NCBI GenBank assembly: GCA_021829645.1
Contig: JAKBPI010000001.1
Location: 7,206 to 71,205, forward strand
DNA: 64,000 nucleotides
Reading direction: 5' to 3'
Source: Actinomycetes bacterium
GTDB lineage: Bacteria > Actinomycetota > Acidimicrobiia > Acidimicrobiales > Bog-793
Made by a program: the position numbers and the translations under genes
Notes under the pieces: generated by a model
What the model was told of the DNA's origin: nothing
Databases searched by the model: none
What the model saw: only the letters and a program-made list of their open reading frames with translations
Shown: positions 5,428-61,591 of the stretch, in pieces
How positions within the stretch are numbered: the stretch's first letter is position 1
Layout of the letters: every line of letters starts with the position of its first letter

Positions 5428-6861
5428 ATGCCAAAACAAAGCGCCAAACAAAAGCGTGCTCATAAACCGAGCACTGCCACTTCGCCATATTACCGAAATC
5501 AATCTACGACTCATGCCCGTCAAAAAAGCACCAAACCCCTTCCTCCGGTTTTATATAAAAGATCTTTTACGCCTGAGGTATTCTTGGCTTTAGTGGGTAT
5601 CGGGTTGGGGGCCACAGTCGGAATAGCCTTGACACCTGAAAGCCACAACGCTTTGGCAGCACCAGGCGGCATAGCCATGTTTCTGGGTAATATTACCGGT
5701 CTGGTAGGAACCTACCTCGCTCTCGTCATGGTACTGCTCGTGAGTCGCATCCCTTTTATCGAAAAAGTACTCGGCCAGGACGGTCTTGTCTCTTGGCATA
5801 AGAAATTAGCTCCTTGGCCGATTTCTCTTATTATTGCGCATGCCATACTGCTTACTATCGCCTACGCTCAAGCGGCAAAAACCGGACCGCTGCACGAATT
5901 GGGCACGCTCATTAACTCTTTCCCGGATATGCTGACGGCCACTGTGGGGTTTGTAATCATGGTGGTTATAGGGATCATATCCATACGCGCCATCCGTCAA
6001 CGCATAAAGAGAGAAACCTGGTGGACCATTCATCTCTACATCTATATCGCTTTGGCTTTGGCTTTTGCCCACGAAATAGTTTTGGGTCCTTCTTTTGTCG
6101 GTCATCCTTTGACGCAAATCATCTGGTCGGTAGCATGGGCCATGACAGCCGGACTGGTTCTTTTGTATCGCTTCATAACCCCAATAGTAAAAAGCACTTA
6201 CTACGGCCTCAGAGTGTATCAGGTGAGAAAAGAGACCGATGACACCATATCAATTATTCTCAAAGGTAAAAACATAGAAAAGATGAAAGTCCGCGGCGGG
6301 CAATTCTTTGAATGGCGATTCTTAAAAAAAGGTATGTGGTGGCAAGCACATCCCTTCTCTATTTCAGCCAAGCCGAGAGCGCCTTATATACGGATAACCG
6401 TCAAACAATTGGGTGACTTTACAACCCAACTCTCCTCACTTAAGCCCGGGGTAAAAGTTTTGATCGAAGGTCCTTATGGCGTCTTCACCAAAAACACTCT
6501 CCGCAAAAATAAAATCGCCCTGATCGCCGGGGGTATAGGGATAACTTCTGTCAGATCGCTCTTAGAAGATATATCTACTCCGAGTGACATAGTGACAATT
6601 TTACGTACAGCCTCAGAAAAGGACACCGCATTACACCAAGAAGTAAAAGATCTGGTCCACAAAAAAGGGGGAGTGGTGCATGAAATATTTGGTTCACGCC
6701 AAGAAATACCTTTAGAAAACATCGTGAGCAAAATAGAAGACATCAAACAGCGAGATGTCTTTATAGCGGGATCTGCCAATTTTGTGGAGAACCTGAAAAA
6801 AGTACTGCACGAAAAAGGTCTGAACTCAGAGCAAGTACACGCAGAGATATACGCTCTCTGA
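5428..6861 (+). CDS. NOX/FRE-type ferric-reductase-domain protein (6-TM bis-heme module fused to an FAD/NAD(P)H dehydrogenase domain)
   Basis: Two His pairs in TM helices are spaced 14 residues (WHKKLAPWPISLIIAH) and 13 residues (HLYIYIALALAFAH). FAD motif HPFS; NAD(P)H motif IAGGIGITS. Confidence 0.8.
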   Translation: MPKQSAKQKRAHKPSTATSPYYRNQSTTHARQKSTKPLPPVLYKRSFTPEVFLALVGIGLGATVGIALTPESHNALAAPGGIAMFLGNITGLVGTYLALVMVLLVSRIPFIEKVLGQDGLVSWHKKLAPWPISLIIAHAILLTIAYAQAAKTGPLHELGTLINSFPDMLTATVGFVIMVVIGIISIRAIRQRIKRETWWTIHLYIYIALALAFAHEIVLGPSFVGHPLTQIIWSVAWAMTAGLVLLYRFITPIVKSTYYGLRVYQVRKETDDTISIILKGKNIEKMKVRGGQFFEWRFLKKGMWWQAHPFSISAKPRAPYIRITVKQLGDFTTQLSSLKPGVKVLIEGPYGVFTKNTLRKNKIALIAGGIGITSVRSLLEDISTPSDIVTILRTASEKDTALHQEVKDLVHKKGGVVHEIFGSRQEIPLENIVSKIEDIKQRDVFIAGSANFVENLKKVLHEKGLNSEQVHAEIYAL

Positions 6862-6929
6862 AGTCTCATACAAACGCAACACATGACCAATAAAAAACTT
6901 ATAATTCATAGAAGAAAGGCAGCAAACAA

Positions 6930-7439
6930 ATGAAGCGCTATCCGATAGTCATCGCAGCAACTGCGGCAGGGCTTGGAACAGTCATGGGATTTCATCCGGC
7001 TTCGACTAATGTGGGAATTGCCCTGCAATCGAAATCCTCCTCTGTCTCCCAATCCACACCACCAAAAAACTCTTCTCCGAGTACCACCACCACCGGCCCT
7101 TCCTCACAAACCGCAAAAGTCTCACCCACGTCTACCACCACCAACCCGGCACCGGGAGGTGTGGCGAGCGCTACCGGGAACGTAGAGAATTACGGGTACG
7201 GACAACTTTCTGTGAAAGTAACTATTTCTAATCGTAAGATCACTGCCATCACCTTGGCACAGTTACAGGTCGCGGAATCTTATTCACAATCCATAGCACA
7301 ACAGGTAATCCCCCTTTTGAAAAATGAGGTTATGAAAGCACAAAGCCTCAACGTCAATGGCTTTACGGGTGCGACTTACACTACGGAGGCATACCTGTAT
7401 TCCCTGCAGTCTGCCTTAAATAAACTCCACTTTAAATAA
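6930..7439 (+). CDS. Membrane-anchored/secreted FMN-binding-domain protein with a Ser/Thr/Pro-rich linker
   Basis: N-terminal hydrophobic anchor (IVIAATAAGLGTVMGF) and an S/T/P-rich low-complexity stretch. The C-terminal domain ends in NGFTGATYTT, which matches the [ST]GA[ST] flavinylation motif (TGAT at 7365-7376). Confidence 0.75.
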   Translation: MKRYPIVIAATAAGLGTVMGFHPASTNVGIALQSKSSSVSQSTPPKNSSPSTTTTGPSSQTAKVSPTSTTTNPAPGGVASATGNVENYGYGQLSVKVTISNRKITAITLAQLQVAESYSQSIAQQVIPLLKNEVMKAQSLNVNGFTGATYTTEAYLYSLQSALNKLHFK

Positions 7440-7453
7440 AGCGGCTAACCGAT

Positions 7454-8236
7454 ATGGGTAGTGCACACGATCTTGAGGTCGTTACCGAAGAGGCCATGGG
7501 AACAGTATTTTCTTTCCATATCATACCCGGCAAGATAGCAATTCGTGATATTACACACGCTTTGGATGAGGCTAAGAAAACCTTACATCTCCACGATGAA
7601 ATATTTAGCACATATAAACCAGAAAGTCCAATATCACAGATACAAAAGGGTACTTTTTATTCTCGTGATGTGTCGAAATCAACCACGGATGACATAGAAG
7701 AAGTCATAACCTTATGTCGTAAGGCCAAAGACCTGACTAAAGGCTGGTTTGACCCATGGCATGGCCCGGTGGGATTTGATCCAACTGGTCTTGTCAAAGG
7801 TTGGTCTATTCAGAAAGTAGCACGGCTAATTTTTTCCTACGGACCTGATGCGGTATCGGTCAACGGGGGCGGAGATGTCTATTGTCTTGCCGGTGATCCG
7901 GAATACAAATGGAGGTTCGCCGTGGCTCATCCATGGAAGAAAGATGCCGTGGCGGGAATTGTTGAGACCGGTCATGCCGTAGCCACATCGGGAACGTATG
8001 AACGGGGCAACCATTTTTTTGACCCTCTAGGATATGTTGGCACCCCAATAATATCATCCACCGTAACGGGACCAGATCTGGCAATGGCAGATGCCTTTGC
8101 AACCGCTCTTGCCGTTGGAGGACTAGAGGCCGCAAAGGCATTGGATGAACTCCCGGAATACGGATACTATCTAATAGATAAGGACGGTAACGAAACATTT
8201 GGTAAAAGCATCGTTTTTGCTACCGATGACCCATAG
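7454..8236 (+). CDS. apbE: ApbE-family FAD:protein FMN transferase (short form, no recognisable signal peptide)
   Basis: AMGTVFSF near the N-terminus, ATSGTYERG, and MADAFATALAV near the C-terminus. It starts 14 nt after the FMN-binding gene. Confidence 0.85.
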   Translation: MGSAHDLEVVTEEAMGTVFSFHIIPGKIAIRDITHALDEAKKTLHLHDEIFSTYKPESPISQIQKGTFYSRDVSKSTTDDIEEVITLCRKAKDLTKGWFDPWHGPVGFDPTGLVKGWSIQKVARLIFSYGPDAVSVNGGGDVYCLAGDPEYKWRFAVAHPWKKDAVAGIVETGHAVATSGTYERGNHFFDPLGYVGTPIISSTVTGPDLAMADAFATALAVGGLEAAKALDELPEYGYYLIDKDGNETFGKSIVFATDDP

Positions 8237-8385: not shown

Positions 8386-11052
8386 GTGGATACTTGCCTA
8401 AGTAGTTTTGACATTATCAATGCAGCTAAAAAATATTTGGAAAACGCCGATGTCGCTTCGCATACAGATACGATACTGGCTTGCACAACCATATCGTTCA
8501 ATCAAACATCTCACGCAAAAAGTCTCGCCGCATCAATGGCGATATGTCATCCTTCAGCCAAATTGGCTGTTCTACTGACAGACGAACAAATTGCAGACGC
8601 CGTCTTTGACGAATTACAAAATATAGTTTCTTTTCGACCGAACGATATAGGTATCAAAAAAGCAGACTTACACAAACTGATGCTGTTTGCCTCAGGAGAA
8701 GATTTAGCCACAAAGCTTGTACCGGCTTTTGGCCTTTTCACTTTAAACCTTCGACCCAACCAACCTCTTCTTCTTCTCTCCCCTGAAACCGCTGTAATTT
8801 CCTTAGTCAACAATTTGCTCACGCAAACAAACGAATGCGGTGTAGCCTTAGTGCCCTGGCAGACACAGTACTCCCCCGATAAAGACACTCATGGTTTTTT
8901 TGATGCAGAAACCGACGGTTTAACACCTGAAGCATTGGATGTCGATATTTCCGGCACCTTCAACCCCGGAATCGTTGGAGTCAAAGGGGACAAAGGGGCT
9001 GATTTTCTCCGCTGGTGGCACAATGCCGTAAAGCGCAACTTGGCTACTCCGGAAACTTCACAATCTTCAACAAATAAAACGCACCGGACCGCTGGAGCCA
9101 CGCTACTTTCCCAAAAAGTACTGCAGTCTCTTCCATATGCACAACCCTATCTAGACCAGGCAATGGCTCTTTTTTCTCCGGCTATCGTCACGGACCCCGG
9201 ATGTGGCATAGGATTTTGGAACCTGCACCAACGACCATTACACCTTACGGATAACGGTATTGTGACAACAGGAAACAGCCCGATTTCCCTGATGCATTTT
9301 GCCGGACTCGACCCTCATAAGCCTTATATCCTTTCTGCTGCCACATCTCATCATCCGAGGGTCTTGCTCAGCAAAGATCCCGTTCTCAGGCAGTTGTGCC
9401 AGGGTCAAATAGACCGACTCATCGGAGGAAAATTTGAATCGGCAGAAGACCTCACCAGTCAAACTACGTTCTGTGACGGCAATACCCTTGACGACAGAAT
9501 GCGCCGTCTATTACATAGAGCGATCCTCGAAGAAGGGTTTGACAACTTAACAGTAGGTGACCCGTTCAACCGAGAAGGCTTAGACGAATTTTATAGTTTC
9601 TTATCCGCAGCCGATCCCAAGAGAACCTCCGGACCGAGAGTACCGGGGTATTTACTGGAGATCTATGAAGAGCGAAAGGACTTAGCCCTCAACTTTCCCA
9701 GACTCACAACAGTAGATGCTTTACCATATAGAAACTGGGTAGCCTTTCATGGCGTCAAAGAAGAGGTGCCCCCGGGTAAGCTGAGAGAAATCCTGGCAGA
9801 AACACCTTGGTGGAAGTCGCCCACTTCCGTATTTTGTGCCGGAGCAGATGGGTTGCGAAAAGGCGTTGCACTCACCGGCTACTTGAGAGCAGAGGTTGGG
9901 GTTGGAGAAGCTGCACGACTTGTCTTAGACGCTTTGGTGGGAGCCAGAATCGAAGTGAGTCCCGTCAATGTAGAATTGCCCACTAGCAGACAAAATCACC
10001 CTCTGAACTCGGACGCCCAGATAGTTGACAGAAAAATCAACGTCATTTGGATGAATGCCGAACACTTACTCGGCTTTGCTGCTTTGGTCGGTCCGGAATT
10101 TTTTGAAGGCAGATATACCGTCGGGGGTTGGGCATGGGAAACAGAACGCCTACCGCAGCGCATGGCTGCCAACTCTGACTTGGTGGATGAAATTTGGGTA
10201 CCCAGTAAATACGTTATGAATGCCGTCGAGCCATATGTTGAATGCCCCGTATATACTTTCCCGCATCCGATAACCGAGCCACCCGTAGATCAGAATTTCG
10301 ACTTGGTTGGACTCCTTGAAAAAGAAGCTCAAAGTAGAAATTCTCTTGTAAGTCTTGACCCAAAAGAAGTTAAGTCAAGATTCAAGTTTTTATATACGTT
10401 TGACTTCAACTCATCCCTGCAACGAAAAAATCCTTTTGGTGTTATAGAAGCTTTTAAAAAAGCATTTCAGGAAAACGAAGGACCTATACTTATCCTCAAA
10501 AGCGTCAATGGTTATAAATGGCAAGCCGATCTAGAGAAATTAAAGTACGAAACTTTAGATAGGTCAGACATCATCATTCTGGATACTTATCTTTCTTCAG
10601 CAGAAAGAGGAGCGTTGCTGAACAGTTGTGACTGCTATGTTTCACTGCATAGGTCTGAAGGTTTTGGACTCGGTATGGCAGAAGCAATGACACTTGCCAA
10701 ACCGGTAATAGCGACTGGTTATTCCGGAAATCTAGAGTTTATGGACGATACCACCGCTTGGTTGGTATCGGCTGAAAAAGTGCCTGTTGGCTTTCTTGCC
10801 CCTCCTTATGACCCAGACGATCGTTGGGGAAATCCGAATTTGGATGAAGCAGCTCAATATATGAGAGATATTGTTTCCGATCCGAAATCCGCCCAACAAA
10901 AAGCTGACCGCGCTAAAATCAAAGTTCTAGCAGAACACGGGAGAGCAAAAGCCATTAAATTCTTGACAAACAGAATAGATGAAATAGCCAAATTAGAAGA
11001 AGCAGAGTACATAAGCCCGGCGGCAGCGGCTTTAAGAAAGCATTTACTTTAG
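8386..11052 (+). CDS. Two-domain glycosyltransferase: GT-A-like N-domain with a degenerate DxD, a conserved linker, and a GT4 (GT-B) C-domain
   Basis: Paralog of 12286..16284 over its whole length. GT4 motifs: RKNPFGVIEAF and SLHRSEGFGLGMAEAMTLAKPVIATGYSGN. GTG start as given by the track. Confidence 0.75.
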   Translation: MDTCLSSFDIINAAKKYLENADVASHTDTILACTTISFNQTSHAKSLAASMAICHPSAKLAVLLTDEQIADAVFDELQNIVSFRPNDIGIKKADLHKLMLFASGEDLATKLVPAFGLFTLNLRPNQPLLLLSPETAVISLVNNLLTQTNECGVALVPWQTQYSPDKDTHGFFDAETDGLTPEALDVDISGTFNPGIVGVKGDKGADFLRWWHNAVKRNLATPETSQSSTNKTHRTAGATLLSQKVLQSLPYAQPYLDQAMALFSPAIVTDPGCGIGFWNLHQRPLHLTDNGIVTTGNSPISLMHFAGLDPHKPYILSAATSHHPRVLLSKDPVLRQLCQGQIDRLIGGKFESAEDLTSQTTFCDGNTLDDRMRRLLHRAILEEGFDNLTVGDPFNREGLDEFYSFLSAADPKRTSGPRVPGYLLEIYEERKDLALNFPRLTTVDALPYRNWVAFHGVKEEVPPGKLREILAETPWWKSPTSVFCAGADGLRKGVALTGYLRAEVGVGEAARLVLDALVGARIEVSPVNVELPTSRQNHPLNSDAQIVDRKINVIWMNAEHLLGFAALVGPEFFEGRYTVGGWAWETERLPQRMAANSDLVDEIWVPSKYVMNAVEPYVECPVYTFPHPITEPPVDQNFDLVGLLEKEAQSRNSLVSLDPKEVKSRFKFLYTFDFNSSLQRKNPFGVIEAFKKAFQENEGPILILKSVNGYKWQADLEKLKYETLDRSDIIILDTYLSSAERGALLNSCDCYVSLHRSEGFGLGMAEAMTLAKPVIATGYSGNLEFMDDTTAWLVSAEKVPVGFLAPPYDPDDRWGNPNLDEAAQYMRDIVSDPKSAQQKADRAKIKVLAEHGRAKAIKFLTNRIDEIAKLEEAEYISPAAAALRKHLL

Positions 11053-11057
11053 ATATC

Positions 11058-12176
11058 GTGAATAAAACACAAACTGTCACTCCAGCCACATCCACATCCG
11101 GTGCTGTTACGGCAGTAATAGTTGTTTACACCGTCAGTAGATTAGCGCTTTTGCTAGCTGCTGATGCTATTTCATCTCTGCATACCAACTTGCCTATTCC
11201 AAGGGTGCTGGCACCATGGGATGGCACATACTACATAGGAATACTTAAATCAGGCTACCCCATACACGTCAATCCTGCGTCTGTCAATTCTGAACCCATT
11301 GCATTTTTTCCTTTCTACCCTCTTTTGGGTAAAGCAATTACCGTAATACTTTCTACACACGCCAGCATAACTCTTGAGGTTGTTGCCATGATAGCTGGAG
11401 GAATCGCATCTGTTTTTGCCACCCTCATAGCAAGAGAGTACAGTGACCCCACCACAGCAAGAAGGGCAGGAATTCTTTTTGCTCTTTTCCCGGGTTCTGT
11501 GATATCGGTAATGGCTTATGCGGATTCATTAGCCGTAATGTTTTCAGTAGCAGCAATTTTCTTTCTTATGCGGAAACGCTATATCGTAGCTGGCATTGCC
11601 GCAGGATTAGCCACTGCCACCTTGTCACTCATGTTATTGCCACTGTTGCTTTTCATTCTGATTTACGGCATTAGAAACAAGAGTTTCAAATCTTTAATTA
11701 CTCTTGTATTGACTGGATCTGGCGGAGGAGCCTACCTGCTCTACCTCTGGATCAGCACCGGTTCCCTTTTCACCTGGTCTAGAGTAGAAGCCGATCACTG
11801 GATGGTACGCTTGAGTTGGCCTTGGGAATTCCCCACGGCATTCTCGGCTTATGCTTTTACTTTTCAAGGATCCTATGTACTGACTGTTGCAAGCATTGTA
11901 GTAACGGCACTGGGACTGTATGCCCTATGGCGGATGAGAGCACCTATTGAATGGTTTATATTTTCCATTGCCATCATCTTTGCCATTACCTTTGACGGCG
12001 GAGCCTGGATCGCACCCAGATTTTTATACGACACCCCGCCTATGATCATCGCCCTTAGTATGTGGGGCGCTAGGAAAAATATTATATTCTTTCCTTTGTG
12101 CTTCATTTCCTTTTGCTGTTTGCTGGGACTCTTATTTGCCTATAGTCCCGGCAACATGGTATTTTTAAATCCATAA
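11058..12176 (+). CDS. Polytopic GT-C-type membrane glycosyltransferase, PIG-V/mannosyltransferase-like
   Basis: About 9-10 hydrophobic helices. The first-loop motif APWDGTYYIGILKSGY resembles the PIG-V-like family signature. It starts 5 nt after the upstream GT gene. Confidence 0.55.
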   Translation: MNKTQTVTPATSTSGAVTAVIVVYTVSRLALLLAADAISSLHTNLPIPRVLAPWDGTYYIGILKSGYPIHVNPASVNSEPIAFFPFYPLLGKAITVILSTHASITLEVVAMIAGGIASVFATLIAREYSDPTTARRAGILFALFPGSVISVMAYADSLAVMFSVAAIFFLMRKRYIVAGIAAGLATATLSLMLLPLLLFILIYGIRNKSFKSLITLVLTGSGGGAYLLYLWISTGSLFTWSRVEADHWMVRLSWPWEFPTAFSAYAFTFQGSYVLTVASIVVTALGLYALWRMRAPIEWFIFSIAIIFAITFDGGAWIAPRFLYDTPPMIIALSMWGARKNIIFFPLCFISFCCLLGLLFAYSPGNMVFLNP

Positions 12177-12285
12177 AGACGATAACCAATTTTTCCAGGT
12201 TAGGTCTTGTTATATGAAAGTTATCAATCTGTCAACAATTAAATGTTTTTATACAAAACAATCTGGTTATTGTTAGTCTGGAGAG

Positions 12286-15200
12286 GTGTTGTCTAATAAG
12301 TTATCGACTTATAAAAATCTTCATGCCTGTACCATCGTAGCTAAAAACTATTTGGCTGCGGCCAGAGTACTGGCAGAGTCTTTTTTAGCCATTCATGAAG
12401 GTGCTACTTTTACCACCCTTGTTTTAGATGACAGAGCAGGTACTATAGATTCCGCTCAGGAACCTTTCAGAGTCTTTGGCTTGGAGAATATAGGTCTCAG
12501 CCAAGAAGAAATCACTGAAATGACAGCCATCTATACCGTCATGGAACTAGCTACCGCTGTAAAACCTTGGTTACTGGAAACACTGCTAAATGAGGCAGAG
12601 GCTGTACTGTATCTGGATCCGGACATTAAGGTTTACTCTCCATTAGACGAATTGTTCATTGCGGCCAAAGAAGGCAAAATTGTATTGACCCCACACGCCG
12701 TCAAACCTATGCCTAGGGACAACAAAACAACTGATGAAACAGCTGTTTTATCGTCCGGTATTTACAACCTGGGCTTTATCGGGTTAGGTAAAGATAAGAA
12801 AAATGCCGACAAAGAAAAACCCTGTATAAAAGATTTTCTGGCCTTCTGGGAAGAAAGGCTCAAAAAAGAATGCTACGTAGACATAGCCAATATGCGCTTT
12901 GTGGATCAACGTTGGATTGATTTCGTGCCTGGAATATATGACGTAGCTATTATCAAAAATCCGGTCTATAACGTGGCTTATTGGAACTTGGACCACCGAG
13001 AAATAGGTTACGAAGATGGCCGTTACACAGTCAATGGTATGCCTTTGGCGTTTTTCCATTTTTCGGGATATAACCCGCATTTACCTCACCTACTTAGTAA
13101 ACACCAAGGGGAAAAACCCAGAATATTATTCTCTGAACATCCTCAGTTAAAAAAGCTTTGCGACGAATACGGACAAGATTTGATGGCACAAGGTTTTGAT
13201 AAGACCACCAAAGAGCCCTACCTTTATGACAGACTCGGCAATGGTATAAAACTGGATCAGTTTTCTAGGCGCCTTTACCGTGATGCTCTATTGAAAGCCT
13301 CAAATGAAAACCATGGGACACAAACCGAAACCCACTCTCCCCCCGGCCCTTTCTATAAAGATGGTAATGACTTTGTGATATGGCTTAATGAGCCACCGGA
13401 AGACCTTACGGCAAAAATGGCGTCGTCTGTTCATCAACCATCCCCAATACGTCTATACAACAACGCATACCCCAGCAGATACTTACTCGCCATTCATCAA
13501 GCAAGAGTCGATTTGCAAGCTGCTTTTCCAGACCCATTAGGCACCGACCAATATCGCTTGGTGGAATGGGCCGACAACGAAGCAATTTTGGGAAGACTCG
13601 ACCCGCGCTTGGTGCCCGGATCACCGGCTGCAAAAGAACTCCTAAAACTCGCATCCGGTAAGAGTTACAATCACCAATCTGCTACTACTGCAAATATCCC
13701 TTTGCCTCGATCACAAACTCGGGCAGGAGGACGGCATGACAAACCTATCTTAGCTGACTCCTCTGATCACCTCATACCCGGTATGCGTGTCACGGGTTAT
13801 TTCCAAGCAGAAACAGGCACCGGTGAGCACGCCCGTCTTGTTCTCTCGGCTGTTGAAAAAGCCGGGATTACCGCAGGTGCATACATAGACAACAATATGA
13901 TAAGTCGACAATCTCATACCTTTGACTATCCGGACAGAAATGACCTCAACACTAATGTGGTCTGCATAAATGCAGACCAGCTACCCCATTTTGCCGAAAA
14001 GGTAGGTAGGGAATTTTTTGAAGGTCGCTACAATATCGGTCTATGGGCATGGGAATTGGAAGAAATGCCTGAACACTTTGCAAAAGCCGCTTCGTGCTTG
14101 GATGAAATTTGGGCCAACAGTTCCTTTACGCAACAGGCTATTTCAAAAATTACTGACAAGCCGGTCTTTTCTTTTCCGCTGCCCGTGAAAGAACCGATCA
14201 TAACAAAAAAATTTGACCGGAAAAGATTGGGAATTGGCTCAGAACCAATGTTTCTCTTTTGCTTTGACCTAATGTCGGTGATGGAAAGGAAAAACCCACT
14301 GGGCCTCATTGAAGCTTTTTCTATGGCATTCCAAGACGGCGAAGGACCCAAGCTGGTCATAAAAGCCGTAGGGGGAGAGCATAAAATAGCCGACCTGGAG
14401 AAGCTGAAGTATGCAGCATCTAAACGCAGTGACATCATTATTTTTGATTCCTATCTTTCTTTTGAAGAAAATGCTGCCCTCATAGAATCGTGCGATTGCT
14501 ATGTCTCGCTGCACAGATCGGAGGGCTTTGGTTTGACATTAGCCGAAGCCATGGCACTGGCTAAGCCTGTAATATCCACTAAGTATTCCGGCAACTTGGA
14601 TTTTATGACACATGAAAATTCTTTTCTTGTCCCATTTGAACACGTCAACATACCTTCTGGTTGCGATCCATATCCATCTTCCATGAAGTGGGCTGATCCT
14701 GACCTAGAAATGGCGGCCGGCTTTATGCGTGACGTAGTAGAAAAACCGGATTTGGCTAAAGAAAAAGGCCTGCTCGCCAAAAGTCAGGTCTTACAAATGC
14801 ACGGCTTAGAAGCAAGGATTCAATTCATAAAAACTCGCTTTGATTTTGCACAAAACTACCTCTCGACGGAAGGAAATAAGGTGTCGGTACAAAAAATTAA
14901 TACGCCTCAGATCCCACAAGATCCACCCTTGATCGCTTTGGCAAAATCCACTCCCAACCTATCCACACCAAGCAAAAAAGGGGTTTTTGCCAAGGCCTAC
15001 AGAAAAGTACTGTATAAAGCGCTACGCCACCACGACGAACACCAACGACAGCTTGACATAGCAATGGCAGCCGGTATCGAACACGTAGCCCGACTCATAA
15101 CTGAATATGGGCAGGTCATTAATGACCTACAAACCAACATCAGTGAAATACGAAAGTCATTGACAGATGATGTTGAACCAAAGAGTGGTCATATAGAACT

Positions 15201-16284
15201 CAACACGAAACAGACTAAATCCAATTTGCAACGCATACATGATTTAGAAAAGCAACTCTTTGAAATTAGAGAATTAATTTATAGTCAAAAAACTGTCATC
15301 AAGTCTCAAGAAGATAGATTTGCCTCGGATATCAAAAAGTTCCTTACCATAAAAGACGAACTGGACGCTTTGGAAAGTCATTTTGAACGCCTAACAGAAG
15401 AGGTAAGTATCATTGACGGAAAAGAAAAGCGTCGTAAACTTTTAGAAATAGAAAAAATGCTTGAACAACTAAAAACCATGCCCCTCTCATCAATGTTTGA
15501 CAAACCTGAATACCTGATAAAAGGTGTTGACGGATTTTCAACTTTAGGCTACGACCTGGTTTTAGAAAAAAACGCCAAATCCTATTTAGAAATAATCGAT
15601 CAGCAAATATCGGCAGGGGACAAAAAGAAGACCCGCGGCAACGATAACTACACGACGCAGAGTGCCTTAGAATCGACATCCGACGAACAAGACTCTTCAC
15701 CTATTTGGAGTGCTAAATCCCTATGGGACACCAGTGACATGGTATCTGAAAGACAAAAATCATATCTAAAACTCCTCAGTGCCTATGAAGGTGTTGTCGA
15801 CTTGGGATGTGGGCGAGGTGAGTTATTGGAACTACTAAGAACTTTTGGGATAGCCGCAAAAGGTATCGAAAAAGATGCTGATTTAGTTCTCCTGTGCCAA
15901 AGAGCTGGCTTAGATGTTATTTGCCTTGACTTTCTGGATTACCTCTCCTCAATAAAAAAGAAGACAAAAAGCGCTATTGTGGCAGCCAGTATTGTTGAGT
16001 ATTTATCTGATTCCGACCTGACACGACTCATCAAATTGGCCTACAATGCTTTGTTGCCCGGGTCGATGCTGCTACTGGAAATGAAAAATCCATACCACAT
16101 AAAGTCCTTTGTCAATACTTGGACAGATCCAGACACGATAAGGCCTATTGCCCCGGAAGTATTACTCCTAAAATGTCATGAAACTGGTTTTCAACGAGCT
16201 GAACTATTTTTCCCACTCGGAACGGGGGAATACAAAAACGATCTGGCAGAGCAAGATTATTACGCAATCATTGCCTATGCGTAG
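12286..16284 (+). CDS. 1332-aa fusion: GT-A-like domain (DPD intact) + linker + GT4 domain + ~200-aa coiled coil + class I SAM methyltransferase
   Basis: YLDPDI (DPD at 12616-12624), FHFSGYNPHLPH, RKNPLGLIEAF, SLHRSEGFGLTLAEAM. A charged helical segment follows (..IHDLEKQLFEIRELIYSQ..LEIEKMLEQLK). Methyltransferase motif I is VVDLGCGRGELLELL. Confidence 0.75.
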   Translation: MLSNKLSTYKNLHACTIVAKNYLAAARVLAESFLAIHEGATFTTLVLDDRAGTIDSAQEPFRVFGLENIGLSQEEITEMTAIYTVMELATAVKPWLLETLLNEAEAVLYLDPDIKVYSPLDELFIAAKEGKIVLTPHAVKPMPRDNKTTDETAVLSSGIYNLGFIGLGKDKKNADKEKPCIKDFLAFWEERLKKECYVDIANMRFVDQRWIDFVPGIYDVAIIKNPVYNVAYWNLDHREIGYEDGRYTVNGMPLAFFHFSGYNPHLPHLLSKHQGEKPRILFSEHPQLKKLCDEYGQDLMAQGFDKTTKEPYLYDRLGNGIKLDQFSRRLYRDALLKASNENHGTQTETHSPPGPFYKDGNDFVIWLNEPPEDLTAKMASSVHQPSPIRLYNNAYPSRYLLAIHQARVDLQAAFPDPLGTDQYRLVEWADNEAILGRLDPRLVPGSPAAKELLKLASGKSYNHQSATTANIPLPRSQTRAGGRHDKPILADSSDHLIPGMRVTGYFQAETGTGEHARLVLSAVEKAGITAGAYIDNNMISRQSHTFDYPDRNDLNTNVVCINADQLPHFAEKVGREFFEGRYNIGLWAWELEEMPEHFAKAASCLDEIWANSSFTQQAISKITDKPVFSFPLPVKEPIITKKFDRKRLGIGSEPMFLFCFDLMSVMERKNPLGLIEAFSMAFQDGEGPKLVIKAVGGEHKIADLEKLKYAASKRSDIIIFDSYLSFEENAALIESCDCYVSLHRSEGFGLTLAEAMALAKPVISTKYSGNLDFMTHENSFLVPFEHVNIPSGCDPYPSSMKWADPDLEMAAGFMRDVVEKPDLAKEKGLLAKSQVLQMHGLEARIQFIKTRFDFAQNYLSTEGNKVSVQKINTPQIPQDPPLIALAKSTPNLSTPSKKGVFAKAYRKVLYKALRHHDEHQRQLDIAMAAGIEHVARLITEYGQVINDLQTNISEIRKSLTDDVEPKSGHIELNTKQTKSNLQRIHDLEKQLFEIRELIYSQKTVIKSQEDRFASDIKKFLTIKDELDALESHFERLTEEVSIIDGKEKRRKLLEIEKMLEQLKTMPLSSMFDKPEYLIKGVDGFSTLGYDLVLEKNAKSYLEIIDQQISAGDKKKTRGNDNYTTQSALESTSDEQDSSPIWSAKSLWDTSDMVSERQKSYLKLLSAYEGVVDLGCGRGELLELLRTFGIAAKGIEKDADLVLLCQRAGLDVICLDFLDYLSSIKKKTKSAIVAASIVEYLSDSDLTRLIKLAYNALLPGSMLLLEMKNPYHIKSFVNTWTDPDTIRPIAPEVLLLKCHETGFQRAELFFPLGTGEYKNDLAEQDYYAIIAYA

Positions 16285-16419
16285 GCTTAAAGACACCAAA
16301 AGGCATTTGTCCTACTAAATATTTCAAAAAATATTTGATTCGCACATAAAAACTTTATAGGCGTTTTACGATAGATTTGTTGTTTGTAAACATATTGGGT
16401 TTTACGGTAAGGGAAAAAA

Positions 16420-18135
16420 GTGGTCACAAGTCAGATATCACCGGAAGACATTAATCTGGGTCTTCCCATACCCAAAAATAGTAGGTTGCGCTTCATCAAA
16501 AAGGTAGTCGCCAAATTAAACTGGCCTTTCCTCTCACATCAGATTAAAATCAACAACAGTATTTTGTCGCAAATGAGCCAGCTGTCGGAGAATGAAGACA
16601 ACTTAACCCAAGCCGTAAACGGTATTTTGGGGACATTAGATCAAATTCAATTTTCCCTTGCTCATCATACTTCCGTCTTAGAGCGTTTTGAACAGACACT
16701 TTCCCGACATGACACGTTTATTCACCACAACGAAGAAATACTAACCGGCAATGCAAAAAATCTTGAGCACCATCAAGTAGTCCTAACCAGACTGGACAAA
16801 ACCGCCGAAGAATACGGTAGGGTTTTGCAACACCATGACGAAGTGTGTACGCGTCAAGATTTGACCTTAGAAAGCCACGAGAGCTATATATCGCATATCA
16901 AAGAGATCTCTGATCATTATGCCAGGTTGAGTATCCTGATTGAACTCGTACAGCAACAATCTTTTACAAGACTTCATGAAACACTTGGGCCACTTCAGGA
17001 AACACTTAACAGCCATGAGCGGCTGTTAAGTGAGCAATATGATGCGGTAAACACCAGGATTCAAGAACAATATGATGCGGTGAACACCAGGATTCAAGAA
17101 CAATATGATGCAGTAAACGGCAGGATTCAAGAGCAATATGATGCAGTAAACGGCAGGATTCAAGAGCAATATGATGCGGTGAACACCAGGATTCAAGAAC
17201 AATATGATGCAGTAAACGGCAGGATTCAAGAGCAATATGATGCAGTAAACGGCAGGATTCAAGAGCAATATGATGCGATGAATAACCTTACTGAGGTACA
17301 AAATCAAAAAACCCTCTCTACTGCTCAAAATGCTATTAATAAAGAAATAAAGTCGATCTGGCCGCGGTTAGCACAAGTAGATCTTTTCCTCAATGAGGTA
17401 AAGAGATCTCTACCTGCTCCTCCTACAAAAGAATCACTTGCAAAACTGCCTTCAGCATTTGAAGGACTTTACGCCGCATTCGAAGAGTCATTTAGAGGTC
17501 CAGAAACCCTAATCCAGTCGAGACTGGAGGTTTACTTACCATTTATTAACCAGATATCCAATCTTGGGCCCGTATTGGACATTGGCTGCGGTCGTGGAGA
17601 ATTTTTGGAGATGTGTGCTCAACACAAAATTAATGCATATGGCGTAGACTCTCTACAAGAAAATGTTGAACGCTGCAAACGAAAGGGGTTGACTGTTCAA
17701 TGGGAAGATGCCTTTGAGCACTTACAGTCTGTGAAACCTGATTCGCTTAGTGTAATAACGGCAATACACATCATTGAGCACCTGGATTTAGCCCATCAGA
17801 TAGAACTTATAGACAGGGCATTAGCAGCACTTGTGCCTGGCGGTATGCTCATCATTGAGACCCCAAACCCAGAAAACGTTTTAGTCGGAAGCTGCTACTT
17901 TTATATGGATCCAACACATGTAAAACCAATACCTCCGGCACTACTAGAATTTTTCCTCAACACAAGAGGATTTATAGATGTAGACATACTCCGACACGAC
18001 AGAGACTCGTTGATCGACACAATAGATGACATTGAACATAGCACAAATGACGGTATGTCTGCTATTACAGAAACGCTGTCAACATTATTTAATTCTGCGC
18101 CTGATTACGCTGTCATAGGAAAAAAGATTGCTTAG
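16420..18135 (+). CDS. Coiled-coil protein with a C-terminal class I SAM methyltransferase (paralog of the C-terminus of 12286..16284)
   Basis: The N-terminal ~330 aa are helical and repetitive, including 7 exact plus 1 degenerate 11-residue repeats. Methyltransferase motif I is VLDIGCGRGEFLEM; post-I/II regions align with the 1332-aa protein (..LVPGGMLIIETPNPEN vs ..LLPGSMLLLEMKNPYH). Confidence 0.75.
   Translation: MVTSQISPEDINLGLPIPKNSRLRFIKKVVAKLNWPFLSHQIKINNSILSQMSQLSENEDNLTQAVNGILGTLDQIQFSLAHHTSVLERFEQTLSRHDTFIHHNEEILTGNAKNLEHHQVVLTRLDKTAEEYGRVLQHHDEVCTRQDLTLESHESYISHIKEISDHYARLSILIELVQQQSFTRLHETLGPLQETLNSHERLLSEQYDAVNTRIQEQYDAVNTRIQEQYDAVNGRIQEQYDAVNGRIQEQYDAVNTRIQEQYDAVNGRIQEQYDAVNGRIQEQYDAMNNLTEVQNQKTLSTAQNAINKEIKSIWPRLAQVDLFLNEVKRSLPAPPTKESLAKLPSAFEGLYAAFEESFRGPETLIQSRLEVYLPFINQISNLGPVLDIGCGRGEFLEMCAQHKINAYGVDSLQENVERCKRKGLTVQWEDAFEHLQSVKPDSLSVITAIHIIEHLDLAHQIELIDRALAALVPGGMLIIETPNPENVLVGSCYFYMDPTHVKPIPPALLEFFLNTRGFIDVDILRHDRDSLIDTIDDIEHSTNDGMSAITETLSTLFNSAPDYAVIGKKIA
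17032..17295 (+). repeat. In-frame 33-bp tandem repeat, 7 near-identical units plus 1 degenerate unit, encoding EQYDAVN(T/G)RIQ
   Basis: Units start at 17032, 17065, 17098, 17131, 17164, 17197 and 17230. Units 2-4 and 5-7 form a 99-bp higher-order duplication that differs at one base. Unit 8 (17263-17295) is degenerate. Confidence 0.95.
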
Positions 18136-20500
18136 TGATTTAGCTAAACCAATAGCATTTTGGAGCCCACTGCCACCGGCAAAAAGTGGTATTTCAGATT
18201 ACAGCTTTGAACTTCTCGAGCACATGAAAAGAAAATGCTCACTCGTCGCCGTAATCGACGATCAGTACTACAAAAGTTGTAAACCACCGACCAATATAGA
18301 AATCATAAAGGCATCTTCCTATATCCATTCTGAATTTAGTACCAATATATTTCAACTCGGAAATCATTTTGGCTTTCATGGCTATATGTACAAGCCACTG
18401 CTAGAGTACGGCGGTATCACTGTATTACATGACTTATCGCTTTTCGACTTTCATGTATCGTTATGCAATAGCGTAGACTCTAGTATTTTAATGGAAGAAA
18501 TTCTTTTTGATTCTCCAGATCTCAAATCGTCAACTGATTTATATAAAAAATTAAGTGATTGTCAGCATGACCGCTTGGCTTACCCACTACTACGAAGAAT
18601 TGCAGATGCCAGTAATTTGATTATTGTGCACTCAAAATATGCCAAACAATTCATTGAAAAAAAGTACCGGACGGATGTTCGTCACATTCACCAAGGTATA
18701 TTGGGCTGCAATAATGTAGATGCAGAGAGTGGCGAGTTAAAAATAGTACTTGGGATGTTCGGTAGCATAGCTAAACACAAAAACACATTAGAAGTCTTAA
18801 AAGCTTTCATTAAAGCTCGTTCTAAAAATCACAATATAAAACTTCTTATTGCCGGCAGAGTAGATGATCCTAATATTTTAAATAGCATAAACCGCACAAT
18901 AGCGTCTTTGCCTACCTCCATCCAAGAAGATGTAGAAATACATACAAATCTTTCATACGACCAGTTGCAAAAGTGTATTGCCAGATGTGATTTGCAAATT
19001 CTTCTCCGTTGGCCCACAGCCGGAGAAACAAGTCGAGTATTGCTACATGGATTTACCATGGGGAAACCGGCTCTCATCTCCCCATTGCCACAATGGTTAG
19101 AATACCCAAATGAGTTTTGCTGGCCTATAGGGAATGATCCAAGGACTACTACAGTCGAAGATATAGCCGATAAAATACTTGAGGCAACATCAGATAAGAA
19201 AAAACTCCTGAAGTCTGGAGTTTTAGCAAAACAATGGGCAGAAGACAACCTGGATTGGGATGCCATTTCATCACAGCTTTTGAAATATACAAGATCTAAT
19301 AGTATTGCTGTCTTGAATAAAGTAGAAAAAAATACTCTGGAAACACCCGATCTAAATAATGGCATAAACGTTATAGCTGCTTTGGATGCAAGCACCGGAT
19401 TAGCAGAAGCAGCCAGACGTTCCATAAAAGCTCTTTACCAATCAGGCATTCCTCTATCTGTGTCCAATTATGATCTGGGGGTACCTACCAATAGTAAAAA
19501 TGTTCCTAGCGAAATTGCAAATCTCAAACGAGGACTTATATTTCCAGACATCAATATATGTTACTTAAATATCAATGAACTACATTGTTTAGATAAATCA
19601 CTATTTTTCACAACCAGAAAAGGACAAAAACTCATTACATCTTGGTGGTGGGAAGCAACACAAATACCCAATGGCCTCATCCAACTTATTACCGAATTAC
19701 ATCCTGATGCAATAACAGTAGGTAGTAATTTTGTTAAAGATATCCTAATGACGTTTTTCCCTTTTCCTACTTACGTAGTTCCACCGGTAGTCAACGTAGA
19801 ATACGATTCCGCGATCAAAAAGCAAAGATTTGGAATCCCAGAAAACAAACTCGTTTATCTGGTATCTTTTGATGCCAACTCCTCGTTCCAACGAAAAAAT
19901 CCTATTGGAGCCATTGAGGCATACAAAAGAGCTTCTCTTGAACACATTACAGACTCTGTATTGGTAGTCAAGGCAAGTAACTTAGAAAAATACCCTGAAG
20001 CCAGGCAAATAATTCAAGCGAAGCTAGCTAGCGTGAATGGAGTGCTGATTGAAGACCATATAACAGCCAAGGAAATGGGGTCCCTACTTTCTTTAGCGGA
20101 CATCTACATATCCCTCCATCGTTCCGAAGGCTTTGGTCTTGGCATGGCGGAGTCTATGTATCTAGGCAAACCTGTAATAGGCACATCATACTCAGGAAAC
20201 ATAGATTTCCTAAATAACGATACCGGATGTCCTGTCAGCTATAAGCTTGTCGAAATCAACCGAGGAGATTTGTACCTTAATTCTTATCTTGATTACGCAG
20301 AATTACAAGCTCCAAAGGGTAAGCACTCTTATTGGGCAGAGCCGAATTTAGATGATGCCACAAAGTGGATTCAAGAATTAGCGCGTTCTGAATCACTCAG
20401 AGAAAAGCTTGGTAAAGCTGGCAAACAGTTTATTGTGAATAATTACAATAGTAAAATTCACGCTGAAAAAATACACCACATTATTAAGCAAATAATGTAG
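18128..20500 (+). CDS. Double GT4 glycosyltransferase (two GT-B modules in one 790-aa protein)
   Basis: The C-terminal half carries the same module as the two upstream GTs (FQRKNPIGAIEAY, SLHRSEGFGLGMAESMYLGKPVIGTSYSGN). The N-terminal half is a second GT4-like module. The TTG start overlaps the stop of the methyltransferase gene by 8 nt. Confidence 0.8.
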   Translation: MLSDLAKPIAFWSPLPPAKSGISDYSFELLEHMKRKCSLVAVIDDQYYKSCKPPTNIEIIKASSYIHSEFSTNIFQLGNHFGFHGYMYKPLLEYGGITVLHDLSLFDFHVSLCNSVDSSILMEEILFDSPDLKSSTDLYKKLSDCQHDRLAYPLLRRIADASNLIIVHSKYAKQFIEKKYRTDVRHIHQGILGCNNVDAESGELKIVLGMFGSIAKHKNTLEVLKAFIKARSKNHNIKLLIAGRVDDPNILNSINRTIASLPTSIQEDVEIHTNLSYDQLQKCIARCDLQILLRWPTAGETSRVLLHGFTMGKPALISPLPQWLEYPNEFCWPIGNDPRTTTVEDIADKILEATSDKKKLLKSGVLAKQWAEDNLDWDAISSQLLKYTRSNSIAVLNKVEKNTLETPDLNNGINVIAALDASTGLAEAARRSIKALYQSGIPLSVSNYDLGVPTNSKNVPSEIANLKRGLIFPDINICYLNINELHCLDKSLFFTTRKGQKLITSWWWEATQIPNGLIQLITELHPDAITVGSNFVKDILMTFFPFPTYVVPPVVNVEYDSAIKKQRFGIPENKLVYLVSFDANSSFQRKNPIGAIEAYKRASLEHITDSVLVVKASNLEKYPEARQIIQAKLASVNGVLIEDHITAKEMGSLLSLADIYISLHRSEGFGLGMAESMYLGKPVIGTSYSGNIDFLNNDTGCPVSYKLVEINRGDLYLNSYLDYAELQAPKGKHSYWAEPNLDDATKWIQELARSESLREKLGKAGKQFIVNNYNSKIHAEKIHHIIKQIM

Positions 20501-20531: not shown

Positions 20532-22433
20532 CTATCTTTTTCTTATAACCCATAGGTCGATACCATAAGCATGTGCTCTAGGTTTGCCATAGTCGCGAGT
20601 AATATACTTAGTAACTAGTTTTGCATTAGAAGCCTCTGTGTTCACCAATATAGCTTGAACATGATTTTTATCTACGAATTCTTTTATACTATTGAATGCT
20701 GATTTGGATGGAGGTGAATTCAAAGGAAACGTTTCGTAGTCAGCAAAATACGAAAATGCTGATTCGACATTACTTGGCATCAGCACCGCCGGAAGGCCTG
20801 ATGGATAACCTGGTGGAATTGTGAACAGGTCATAGCCGCCCAGCAAGCGAAAATGCATATTTGCTAACAATTGCCATACCATAGCTTCATTATCTGCCAT
20901 AATTGGATAGGGGTATGCTAGTGTGACTGCTCCGGTCGGTATATAATTTAAATCACTTGTGGTAAAAAAGTGCGAGTAAGAATTTGACATTTCTCCATTT
21001 GAAAGCTGATATGGCCAATTCGGAATTAAGCTTATAATAATAACGCCGATTACGGCTACAACAGCCAAAATCTTAGCGTAAGCTTTTATTGATAATCTTT
21101 TTATAGACTGAACAAAATTGTTAGTTTTATCACGTAGTTCAGATAAATATATGTTTATAAGATAATCTATAATAAATCCTACCAGAATTGCCATAAATAG
21201 GTCAGTATACATTGCTATGCGGGATGCCAAAATATTATCTAGTATTGGAACGTGCTGAAATAAGTCAAATGGCAGGGGTATAGAATAATTTTTATTATCA
21301 ATTGTCAGATATGGTCCTAACGACAATAAAAATGCAAAAAATGCCATGACTGTACATAGCTGAACCCACTTATTTTTTCGTAATCGATACACACCAATTG
21401 CTAAACCTAGCAGAAGAGGCGCCCCAACGTAACTACCATTTTCAATCCAATCGCCCGCTAAAAAAGATGTCCCTATATTTTTCCAGCTTTGTGGATAAAG
21501 CAATTGACCAACGTTTGGTACTACTATTCCTAGAAGATCTGCATGAAATTGGTTATTCCACGTATGTATCATAGCTATAAGATGATTAGGACCGTAGATA
21601 GAATAATATATTGGATAACCTAAGACAACCACAGAGATACCTACAGTTACAAGCAAATTAGGTAAGTTGTTCCACAATCTCCTAATGGATTCCTTTGGGT
21701 ATGCTATGAAAAGCATACCGCAGCCACCAAGAGCGATAATAGCAGTCGTAGCCAGTATCTCACTTGACATCATATATTGGAATATTATTAATATTGCTAG
21801 TAGAATCGCTAAGCGGTATTTGTGATTACTTTCAGTACAAAACATCTTATATAAAACATAAAAAATTAGAGGAGGGAAAGGTATAAAAATTAAATTTAGA
21901 TGCCCTGTACCCTCTGAAATCATATACGGGGAAAAGCCATAAAAAAGCCCGGCAAGAAAAGGGGGTAAAAATTTATGAGTTATATGAGGTATTTTGCTCA
22001 CAACATAGAACATTGCAGTAGCTGATAGCACAAATGAGGACCATAACAATAAATTGTATGTTGCAATCGCATTTATCAGATAGGTAATGGGGGATAATAT
22101 TATTGCATATAAAAAGTAACTAGAACTAATTGCTAAGTTCGCTCCTGCTGGGTAATTCAGCCAATTGGTGCTATAAGGATTAATTCCATGAAATACAGCA
22201 AAAGGAGACCATGACAGAAACCATGCCGACTGAGCTACATCACCACAACCACAATTAGGCAACTGGCTTGGATCTAAAGGGTATCCTGGTAAATAAGCTA
22301 CGAGGGCTAGCAGACCAAAAATAACTCCCGCAAGCAGTATTCTCTTATATTTTTTATAAAAGGGGTAAAAAAATAACTTCTTATTTGTATTTTTAGGTAG
22401 CATCAACAATTTTCCATAATTTTTACGCTTCAA
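20532..22433 (-). CDS. Large polytopic membrane protein, probable GT-C-fold glycosyltransferase; the most AT-rich gene in the window
   Basis: 633 aa with more than 10 hydrophobic helices and a C-terminal soluble domain. It is convergent with the GT cluster and lies 49 nt downstream of gatB on the same strand. A sampled line (21301-21360) has 21/60 G+C. Confidence 0.5.
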   Translation of the reverse strand: MKRKNYGKLLMLPKNTNKKLFFYPFYKKYKRILLAGVIFGLLALVAYLPGYPLDPSQLPNCGCGDVAQSAWFLSWSPFAVFHGINPYSTNWLNYPAGANLAISSSYFLYAIILSPITYLINAIATYNLLLWSSFVLSATAMFYVVSKIPHITHKFLPPFLAGLFYGFSPYMISEGTGHLNLIFIPFPPLIFYVLYKMFCTESNHKYRLAILLAILIIFQYMMSSEILATTAIIALGGCGMLFIAYPKESIRRLWNNLPNLLVTVGISVVVLGYPIYYSIYGPNHLIAMIHTWNNQFHADLLGIVVPNVGQLLYPQSWKNIGTSFLAGDWIENGSYVGAPLLLGLAIGVYRLRKNKWVQLCTVMAFFAFLLSLGPYLTIDNKNYSIPLPFDLFQHVPILDNILASRIAMYTDLFMAILVGFIIDYLINIYLSELRDKTNNFVQSIKRLSIKAYAKILAVVAVIGVIIISLIPNWPYQLSNGEMSNSYSHFFTTSDLNYIPTGAVTLAYPYPIMADNEAMVWQLLANMHFRLLGGYDLFTIPPGYPSGLPAVLMPSNVESAFSYFADYETFPLNSPPSKSAFNSIKEFVDKNHVQAILVNTEASNAKLVTKYITRDYGKPRAHAYGIDLWVIRKR

Positions 22434-58332: not shown

Positions 58333-58360
58333 TGTTACAGTCTTGCAAAACGGAGAGCTC

Positions 58361-61128: not shown

Positions 61129-61591
61129 AGCCTTCTCCTTCTTAAGCGATTACCACAGTACAAAAATTTTTATCTGATCTGATAACAAATAGTAGTTGCT
61201 TTACGTAGGCAATGCTAGTTTACTTAATGCTTTGCGTCAATCCTACTTTTTAGATACCTTCTCTATATCTTACTGCTTGAGTTTACCTATTTACAATGAC
61301 CTTCAGAGATAACTTTTTATTCACTATTTCGAGCAATCAATGCATAATTTCAGTTTTTTAGCAAGAGGTAGCAGAAATGCTTATCTACAAGCGTCAGTTG
61401 CTAAAAAGGAAAACATAAGTTAAAAGTTTCTATTTTGGCTCATTTACACTTGGACATTTACATCAGAAAGAATAATCTGTCCCAAGGTAGCCATAAAATA
61501 TATATCCTCTGATAGCAATATTCTTCATTTTATGAAGACTCTCTATACCGAGAGCATAGACTAAGATTTGCCTATATCAAAGCATATTTAT

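Follow-up and report, generated by a model that had tools for sequence, protein, structure and literature searches.

Does an actinobacterium measure the length of a polysaccharide with a protein helix and end the chain with a methyl group? The question is raised by five genes (g1 to g5) that lie together on one strand of a 64,000-nucleotide stretch of contig JAKBPI010000001.1 (assembly GCA_021829645.1, positions 7,206 to 71,205 of the forward strand), the whole of which is called the window. A first interpretation made from the letters alone, the sequence-only reading, took them for a glycan-assembly island, and open reading frame (ORF) calls and Pfam bear out the coordinates and domains of all five. 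With a probability of roughly 0.6, the island encodes machinery for a polyprenol-linked envelope polysaccharide that follows a polymerase-spacer-terminator logic.

8386..11052, + strand: g1, 888 aa, GTG start
11058..12176, + strand: g2, 372 aa
12286..16284, + strand: g3, 1332-aa fusion
16420..18135, + strand: g4, 571 aa
18128..20500, + strand: g5, 790 aa, TTG start

The argument centers on g3, in which Pfam and AlphaFold2 find two glycosyltransferase (GT) modules, coiled-coil-like helices and a terminator-type enzyme in a single polypeptide. The layout first read from the sequence (GT-A, linker, GT4, coiled-coil-like helix, methyltransferase) was confirmed by Pfam, AlphaFold2 and Foldseek. The parts of g3, including a methyltransferase of the S-adenosylmethionine (SAM) type, are placed as follows.

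12319..13320, + strand: GT-A-like domain, aa 12-345, with an invariant YLDPD (DxD) motif
13774..14865, + strand: GT4 domain (GT-B fold), aa 497-860, Glycos_transf_1 E 2e-15
14983..15471, + strand: helical spacer, aa 900-1062
15568..16284, + strand: class I SAM methyltransferase domain, about aa 1095-1332, divergent in this lineage

The AlphaFold2 model of g3, a monomer covering aa 1-1160 with a mean predicted local distance difference test score (pLDDT) of 77, consists of a confident alpha/beta domain (aa 12-345), a helical linker (aa 357-457), a disordered segment (aa 460-493) and a GT-B domain (aa 497-860). The GT-A-like domain (pLDDT ~90) alternates beta and alpha elements and keeps 103 of 107 family-conserved positions, and the DxD motif is invariant across the g3 family. 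No Pfam model matches it above threshold; the GT8 model (Glyco_transf_8) reaches E 0.0065 and 16.5 bits against a cutoff of 24.3. A profile of the domain matches only GT8 structures in the PDB, weakly and by alignment through the DxD motif (3tzt, E 0.017; LgtC, E 0.46). Because the structural matches are weak and Pfam GT8 stays below threshold, the domain is, by its profile, GT8-like in fold and not a member of GT8. At E<=1e-3 its family forms 6956 clusters (50% identity). The g3 architecture recurs in a great many proteins, of Actinomycetota as well as of other phyla. Foldseek with the 1160-aa model returned only GT4 matches and was unusable for classifying the GT-A domain, so the profile-to-PDB search was used instead.

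The GT4 domain of g3 scores 57.2 bits with Glycos_transf_1 (cutoff 26.4), keeps 102 of 113 family-conserved positions and has the GT4 enzymes TreT, BshA, GlgM and PimB' as its best Foldseek matches (E 1e-13 to 1e-10). The SEGFGLxxAE motif of the GT4 modules, which is of the EX7E type, was read straight from the sequence. The same module had been said to occur three times in the island. That count stands insofar as g1, g3 and g5 all exceed the Pfam threshold and the C-terminal half of g5 resembles the g3 GT4 (27% identity, E 3e-34), but the FFEGRY motif named for it is absent from g5. Weak Pfam matches suggesting an anti-phage "GT4-conflict" role overlap the Glycos_transf_1 matches and were dismissed.

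Beyond the GT4 domain, g3 is predicted to be helical at aa 900-960, 968-1038 and 1047-1062 (pLDDT 61-76), about 140-160 helical residues in all. Fourier analysis of aa 904-1050 gives a heptad (3.5-residue) hydrophobic periodicity at 5-11 times background, and the spacer starts with a predicted cationic amphipathic helix (aa 901-918; hydrophobic moment 0.58, net charge +3). Spacer length is constant at 235-236 aa within the window's clade. The AlphaFold2 model of g4, also a monomer (mean pLDDT 76), has a single helix of about 307 residues (aa 24-330) and, after it, a class I methyltransferase modelled with confidence (aa 337-569). Its helix has heptad periodicity at aa 36-180 and hendecad (3.67-residue) periodicity at aa 183-300, the latter at 17-19 times background, and a predicted cationic amphipathic segment again sits at the base (aa 23-40; hydrophobic moment 0.44, net charge +4). 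Over the helices of both proteins, hydrophobic periodicity is 5-18 times background. No transmembrane segments were found in g1, g3, g4 or g5. The coiled-coil-like helices first proposed for g3 and g4 are thereby recovered as extended helices in AlphaFold2 monomers (g4 aa 24-330; g3 aa 900-1038 and 1047-1062), with periodicities of 3.5 and 3.67 residues. Matches of g4 to apolipoprotein, perilipin and phasin families of Pfam, which result from its 11-residue periodicity, fell below threshold and were dismissed. The heptad part of g4 also bears regularly spaced His/His-His motifs (HHTSVLERF, HHNEEIL, HHQVVL and HHDEVC, at about aa 80-180, positions 16660-16960), which are invariant in relatives at 53-61% identity.

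A tandem repeat is embedded in the g4 helix.

17032..17282, + strand: 33-bp repeat in the g4 helix, 7.4 copies by Tandem Repeats Finder, 11-aa unit RIQEQYDAVN(G/T)

Proteins that are 100% identical elsewhere have 8, 5 or 4 of these units. For example, the window and GCA_027408045.1 differ by 5 mismatches in 7.7 kb, and the sole indel is a 99-bp deletion. Relatives that are 53-61% identical carry other 11-mer repeats at the same position of g4.

The methyltransferases of g3 and g4 are paralogs (34% identity, E 5e-24). When the two families were compared with hhalign, the methyltransferases aligned (E 1.5e-54) and were the only part to do so; the spacers did not align. In g4, Pfam matches Methyltransf_23 at E 8e-16, methyltransferase families cover aa 381-485, PDB entry 3dli matches at E 3e-35 and all invariant residues of the family are kept; Pfam finds no kinase domain. 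In g3, class I methyltransferase families match aa 1162-1270, 3dli matches at E 6e-21 and SAM-binding motif I (DLGCGRGE) is kept. Of 61 family-conserved positions, 24 are changed in g3, and only in the window's clade (FRG>LWD, EH>EY, TH>DT); among the losses is a His that every member of the g4 family keeps and that distant g3-type fusions almost always have. The pattern of substitutions suggests that the g3 methyltransferase may not be a working terminator in this lineage, and, since it has lost family-invariant residues, g4 probably is. A likeness to the WbdD terminator had been expected of both domains and is seen neither in sequence nor in fold: profile and fold searches place the uncharacterised archaeal methyltransferase 3dli first and generic small-molecule methyltransferases of class I next. 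The question of whether the domains cluster with small-molecule enzymes was put to the profile and Foldseek searches with the g4 methyltransferase, which did not separate capping from small-molecule types.

Downstream of g4, g5 is a double-GT4 protein (aa 1-400 and 412-790) that Glycos_transf_1 matches in two stretches (70.6 bits; cutoff 26.4); the motif of its N-terminal GT4 is non-canonical. With its TTG start g5 reaches 8 nt back over the g4 stop, and AGGA lies 7 nt before that start, so that both parts of the original description of g5 hold. At the other end of the island, g1 was said to share the GT-A, linker and GT4 layout of g3. The paralogy is clear (32% identity over g3 aa 1-853, E 6e-131), but the GT-A-like copy in g1 is degenerate. 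This domain (about aa 30-345; 8473-9405) keeps 38 of 78 family-conserved positions and loses 40, including the DxD motif (D111>S, D113>E); other changes are D207>N, R209>P and W210>Y. It is followed by a helical linker and an intact GT4 (about aa 503-865) that keeps 77 of 84 conserved positions and matches Glycos_transf_1 at E 3.5e-11 (43.4 bits; cutoff 26.4). To judge by these substitutions, g1 probably carries a pseudo-glycosyltransferase in place of a working GT-A-like domain.

Which organism harbors these genes? The window (GC ~45%) contains mostly housekeeping genes (ilvD, gatCAB, a PknB-PASTA kinase gene, holB, tmk, topA, glnA with a GlnR-like regulator, and a sigma-70 factor). The closest named relatives of its TopA are 57-63% identical and come nearly all from Acidimicrobiales/Actinomycetota metagenome-assembled genomes (MAGs), with one row labelled Polyangiaceae. 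Because of these relatives, which agree with the actinobacterial origin first proposed, the host is a low-GC, Acidimicrobiia-like and presumably monoderm actinobacterium. In relatives with a 66%-identical g3, the order g1 to g5 is kept, between apbE and gatB. A MAG with such a g3 carries the label "Firmicutes bacterium", and the syntenic relatives GCA_027407925.1 and GCA_023475605.1 are labelled "Firmicutes/Bacillota bacterium" at NCBI. Given that the TopA of the window is closest to Acidimicrobiales MAG proteins, this label is probably a taxonomic misnomer.

Evidence for the kind of pathway comes from more distant genomes. A comparative set of 80 loci with the GT8-like and GT4 core was drawn from the matches listed by a scan of species-representative genomes; it comprises loci from outside the window's own clade, namely from Acidimicrobiia, Thermoleophilia, Frankiales, an Acidothermaceae isolate, Acidobacteriota, Chthoniobacterales, the candidate phylum Dormibacterota, Gemmatimonadales and one cyanobacterium. 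Neighboring ORFs were clustered and the clusters annotated with Pfam. The core is fused to a g3-type methyltransferase in 30 of these 80 loci, two of which were matched by only one of two probes. Four others encode spacer and methyltransferase as a separate ORF of 421-436 aa that overlaps the stop of the core gene. Still others have a different domain 190-290 aa after the GT4: FkbM-type in three, Methyltransf_11 in two and DUF4915 in two. A spacer of 128-272 aa is present in all 26 fused members measured.

The same neighborhoods connect the core to export and sugar supply. A Wzt cluster is found in 15 of the 80 loci (ABC_tran in 14 of the 15 proteins, Wzt_C in seven), six Wzm permeases (ABC2_membrane) were found, and a GDP-mannose 4,6-dehydratase gene (gmd) adjoins the core in 16. 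In two loci wzt is found a short way upstream of the g3-like gene, 112 and 384 bp from it; a third has a core gene without the methyltransferase, whose start wzt overlaps. A regular expression for the Walker A and LSGGQ motifs of ABC ATPases was dropped after it found three proteins, against 14-15 by clustering and Pfam. The search of related genomes for the same fusion and for linked ABC exporters thus found both. The cyanobacterium Mastigocladopsis repens carries a g4 homolog in the order wzm, wzt (with Wzt_C), acetyltransferase, methyltransferase, double GT4, with a stop/start overlap. As g5 and the Mastigocladopsis double GT4 are only weakly similar (20% identity, E 1e-5), the comparison is, on sequence grounds, one of architecture and not of orthology. 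The order of methyltransferase followed by double GT4 recurs in six loci including that of Mastigocladopsis, and in another of them (L089) the pair lies near a CW_binding_2 protein. Many g4 homologs are annotated by JGI as "O-antigen chain-terminating methyltransferase".

Two polytopic membrane proteins may belong to the same system. The first, g2, has about 8 hydrophobic segments and is a PIG-V-like candidate GT-C; its match to Mannosyl_trans2/PIG-V is marginal (25.5 bits, cutoff 22.4; profile positions 58-205 of 443, or 148, covered). It is kept in the 66%-identity relatives, and a homolog occurs in one of the 80 loci. The second is encoded just beyond g5.

20532..22433, - strand: 633-aa polytopic membrane protein, about 10 hydrophobic segments, local GC 37-38%

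It has no Pfam family, and two of eight members of its family give a weak PTPS_related signal. Because homologs adjoin the GT core in nine of the 80 loci (seven by BLAST to the window protein, two more by clustering), it is probably a sixth island gene; the gene is not present in the 66%-identity relatives. An 824-aa membrane protein with a C-terminal YfhO match (29007-31481, + strand; E 3.9e-8) brings the number of large polytopic membrane proteins within 20 kb to three and is another candidate GT-C. YfhO enzymes act in teichoic acid glycosylation.

Taken together, these observations suggest the following mechanism. The island proteins would be cytoplasmic and peripheral to the membrane, building a glycan in a monoderm actinobacterium. 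In this scheme g3 would be a self-contained module, with two retaining GT domains (GT8-like GT-A and GT4) extending the chain and a helical spacer of about 140-160 residues keeping the SAM methyltransferase apart from them. The g4 and g5 proteins would be a split, WbdD/WbdA-like version of the design, in which a helix of about 307 residues carries the methyltransferase and a double-GT4 protein is the polymerase, and they are likely to be translationally coupled. The cationic amphipathic helices at the spacer bases would anchor the GT end to the membrane. Once the chain is long enough to reach the distal methyltransferase, it would be O-methylated, and hence terminated and marked for export, and this cap would license export through a Wzm/Wzt transporter whose genes would lie elsewhere in the genome. 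At full extension of the helices (~1.5 Å per residue), the reach would be about 450 Å for g4 and about 200 Å for g3. The g1 protein would be a paralog of the g3 core that retains GT4 activity alone; it and possibly the g3 methyltransferase may be sub-functionalised remnants. Outside the membrane, g2 and the 633-aa protein may decorate or transfer the glycan. The sugar is plausibly a GDP-mannose-derived hexose or 6-deoxyhexose.

How close is this to characterised systems? WsaE of Geobacillus stearothermophilus resembles g3 in fusing a methyltransferase to GT domains, and it does so in a monoderm that makes a capped, ABC-transporter-dependent S-layer glycan. Unlike g3, its methyltransferase is N-terminal and its rhamnosyltransferases are of the GT2 type. 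We know of no report of a long coiled coil in WsaE.

The terminator-polymerase precedent for g4 and g5 is WbdD with WbdA (PMC11231755, PMC3482155), known from Escherichia coli O8 and O9a and Klebsiella pneumoniae O5/O3. Here too, a methyltransferase sits on a helical spacer, its gene lies beside that of a multi-GT4 polymerase and a predicted amphipathic helix marks the spacer end opposite the catalytic domain; homologs of the g4/g5 pair also occur in a wzm-wzt(Wzt_C) operon. In contrast, the methyltransferase is N-terminal in WbdD and C-terminal in g4, which has no kinase domain and resembles WbdD no more than it does generic class I enzymes, and the host here is a monoderm, with no wzm/wzt found in the window.

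The precedents for g3 are one-polypeptide polymerase-ruler-terminators, WbbB of K. pneumoniae O12 (also Raoultella terrigena) and ORF6 of K. pneumoniae O7 (PMC11231755), the latter a methyltransferase-kinase with a coiled coil and two GT2 modules (PMC11231755, PMC3482155). Like them, g3 unites two GT modules, a spacer and a terminating-type enzyme. ORF6 shares with it a methyltransferase as well, and the structure nearest to ORF6, CgnL (7pd7), weakly matches g3 and g4. The differences are that WbbB and ORF6 use GT102/103 or GT2 modules whereas g3 has GT8-like and GT4 ones, that the domain order is reversed, and that g3 lacks a Kdo transferase, a kinase and a carbohydrate-binding module and has a possibly inactive methyltransferase. 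WbbB was not among the PDB sequence matches of g3, and the GT modules of g3 are not GT99, GT102/103 or GT2. The proposal that polymerase, ruler and capping methyltransferase form one polypeptide survives as a description of the g3 architecture, but the design was already published for WbbB and ORF6 and the g3 methyltransferase is degenerate.

Pseudomonas offers a third comparison. Fused GT-methyltransferase genes are found in the TET operon of some Pseudomonas syringae isolates (PMC7820976). The common polysaccharide antigen (CPA) loci combine gmd, wzm, wzt, a methyltransferase and a GT4 polymerase, as do relatives of the core (PMC7820976, PMC3560663). However, the CPA methyltransferases have no long spacer (PMC3560663), no GT8-like domain is present and the product is a lipopolysaccharide-linked D-rhamnan in a diderm.

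Several results weigh against the envelope-polysaccharide reading. Neither wzm/wzt nor a priming transferase or nucleoside diphosphate (NDP)-sugar gene was found among the scanned ORFs of the 64-kb window, as the sequence-only reading had already cautioned, nor within 10 kb in the 66%-identity relatives. Only about one fifth of the related loci have wzm/wzt within 10 kb. The proposed link to ABC-transporter-dependent capped glycans accordingly holds for relatives (Wzt, Wzt_C and Gmd) but not for the window itself. The helices of g3 and g4 have pLDDT values of only 50-87 and were modelled as monomers, not as an oligomeric coiled coil, and the break at aa 961-967 of g3 makes a hairpin possible, which would halve its reach. 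WbdD structures are not in the top 60 profile matches or the top 50 Foldseek matches of the g4 methyltransferase. Moreover, the two WbdD-like methyltransferases of Pseudomonas aeruginosa CPA (PA5457 and PA5459) are partly redundant and are not classical chain-length regulators (PMC3560663). Finally, the copy-number variation of the g4 repeat could be true polymorphism or assembly collapse; an assembly artefact is possible because two contigs end inside the array.

There are two further ideas about length. The notion that two rulers specify two length classes is weakened, since the g3 methyltransferase, changed at more than a third of its family-conserved positions, may not work. A more specific idea is that the g4 helix is a genetically tunable ruler, in which gain or loss of 33-bp units (4, 5 or 8 copies) shifts the modal length of the methyl-capped glycan between strains. 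This is doubtful. If it were true, each 11-residue unit would add about 16 Å of extended helix, repeats of 11 residues would have arisen at that spot independently in related lineages, and surface-polysaccharide length would vary by repeat number in a monoderm actinobacterium, on a very large uncharacterised GT family.

The alternative that survives best, although unlikely, accepts an envelope glycan and treats the helices as scaffolds for oligomerisation or membrane tethering; the methyltransferases would then act internally or without setting length, and length would follow from stoichiometry or export. The CPA methyltransferases of P. aeruginosa, which are related to WbdD of O8, are a precedent for such non-regulatory enzymes (PMC3560663). 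Also in its favor are a degenerate g3 methyltransferase behind a spacer that stays at 235-236 aa in the clade and a recognisable Wzt_C in only seven neighborhood Wzt proteins. Yet a long coiled coil on a terminating enzyme is a ruler in every characterised system (PMC11231755), differing methyltransferase families all sit behind a long spacer, and the g4 helix changes length by in-frame 11-aa units between identical flanks.

A still less likely alternative, also put forward in the sequence-only reading, is an intracellular polymethylated polysaccharide comparable to the methylmannose and methylglucose polysaccharides (MMP/MGLP) of mycobacteria, in which GT and methyltransferase alternate, most or all residues are methylated and the helices are mere scaffolds. 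A GT-methyltransferase fusion would fit transfer and methylation in alternation, the MMP/MGLP makers and this host are both actinobacteria, GH63/MGH1-like and glycogen-debranching-type genes lie 35 kb away, and neither the window nor its close relatives yielded a gene for an exporter, a primer or sugar-nucleotide synthesis. However, distant relatives of the core reside in wzm-wzt(Wzt_C)-gmd loci, GT-C-like membrane genes lie in or beside the island, and a conserved spacer of 128-307 residues is hard to square with methylation of every residue. No homologs of ManT, MeT1, MeT3, MmpH or Rv3030-Rv3032 were named in Pfam and NCBIfam scans, and no reference-sequence search was made. The least probable alternative, a protein-linked glycan of the S-layer type as with WsaE, would differ from a polyprenol-linked envelope polysaccharide in acceptor only, and the monoderm host, the CW_binding_2 protein near the methyltransferase and double-GT4 pair in L089 and the three GT-C-like membrane proteins nearby make it conceivable, but the window yielded no recognisable S-layer protein or oligosaccharyltransferase and direct evidence was not found.

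Other parts of the window were surveyed as well. Directly upstream of g1, and kept in relatives, are genes for a ferric-reductase-like protein (FAD_binding_8), an FMN_bind protein and an ApbE flavin transferase (5428-8236), which probably form an extracytoplasmic flavinylation system with no connection to glycan synthesis. The 920-aa GH63/MGH1-like hydrolase (- strand) and the 683-aa glycogen-debranching-type enzyme (+ strand) are encoded divergently at 55705-60301, their ORF 5' ends overlapping at 58250-58467; they could be relevant to glucosylglycerate or alpha-glucan metabolism and have no linkage to the island. The segment at 60000-64000 is low in GC (~40%) and includes two ORFs of about 290 aa without a Pfam match (61592-62467 and 62987-63856, - strand). 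Rfam and tRNA scans of the window gave no matches, a promoter and terminator scan gave no excess over shuffled sequence, and a literature search on glycans of Acidimicrobiia gave nothing relevant.

The principle of a polymerase, ruler and terminator in one polypeptide is not new. What is distinct here is an unnamed GT8-like family combined with GT4, a reversed domain order, methyltransferases that are not WbdD-like and a monoderm host, together with selectively degenerate paralogs and a hypervariable hendecad repeat. To our knowledge, only a few O-antigen systems of enterobacteria have been shown to set polysaccharide length with a coiled-coil ruler. This locus and its thousands of relatives, which pair a GT-A-like family lying below Pfam thresholds with interchangeable methyltransferase families, suggest that ruler logic extends to Actinomycetota, Acidobacteriota, Verrucomicrobiota, the candidate phylum Dormibacterota, Gemmatimonadota and Cyanobacteria, in largely uncultured members. 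The g4 alleles that differ by whole 11-residue units and the paralogs with selectively degenerate domains are natural experiments; they make the ruler hypothesis testable outside Enterobacteriaceae and could supply parts for engineering glycan length.

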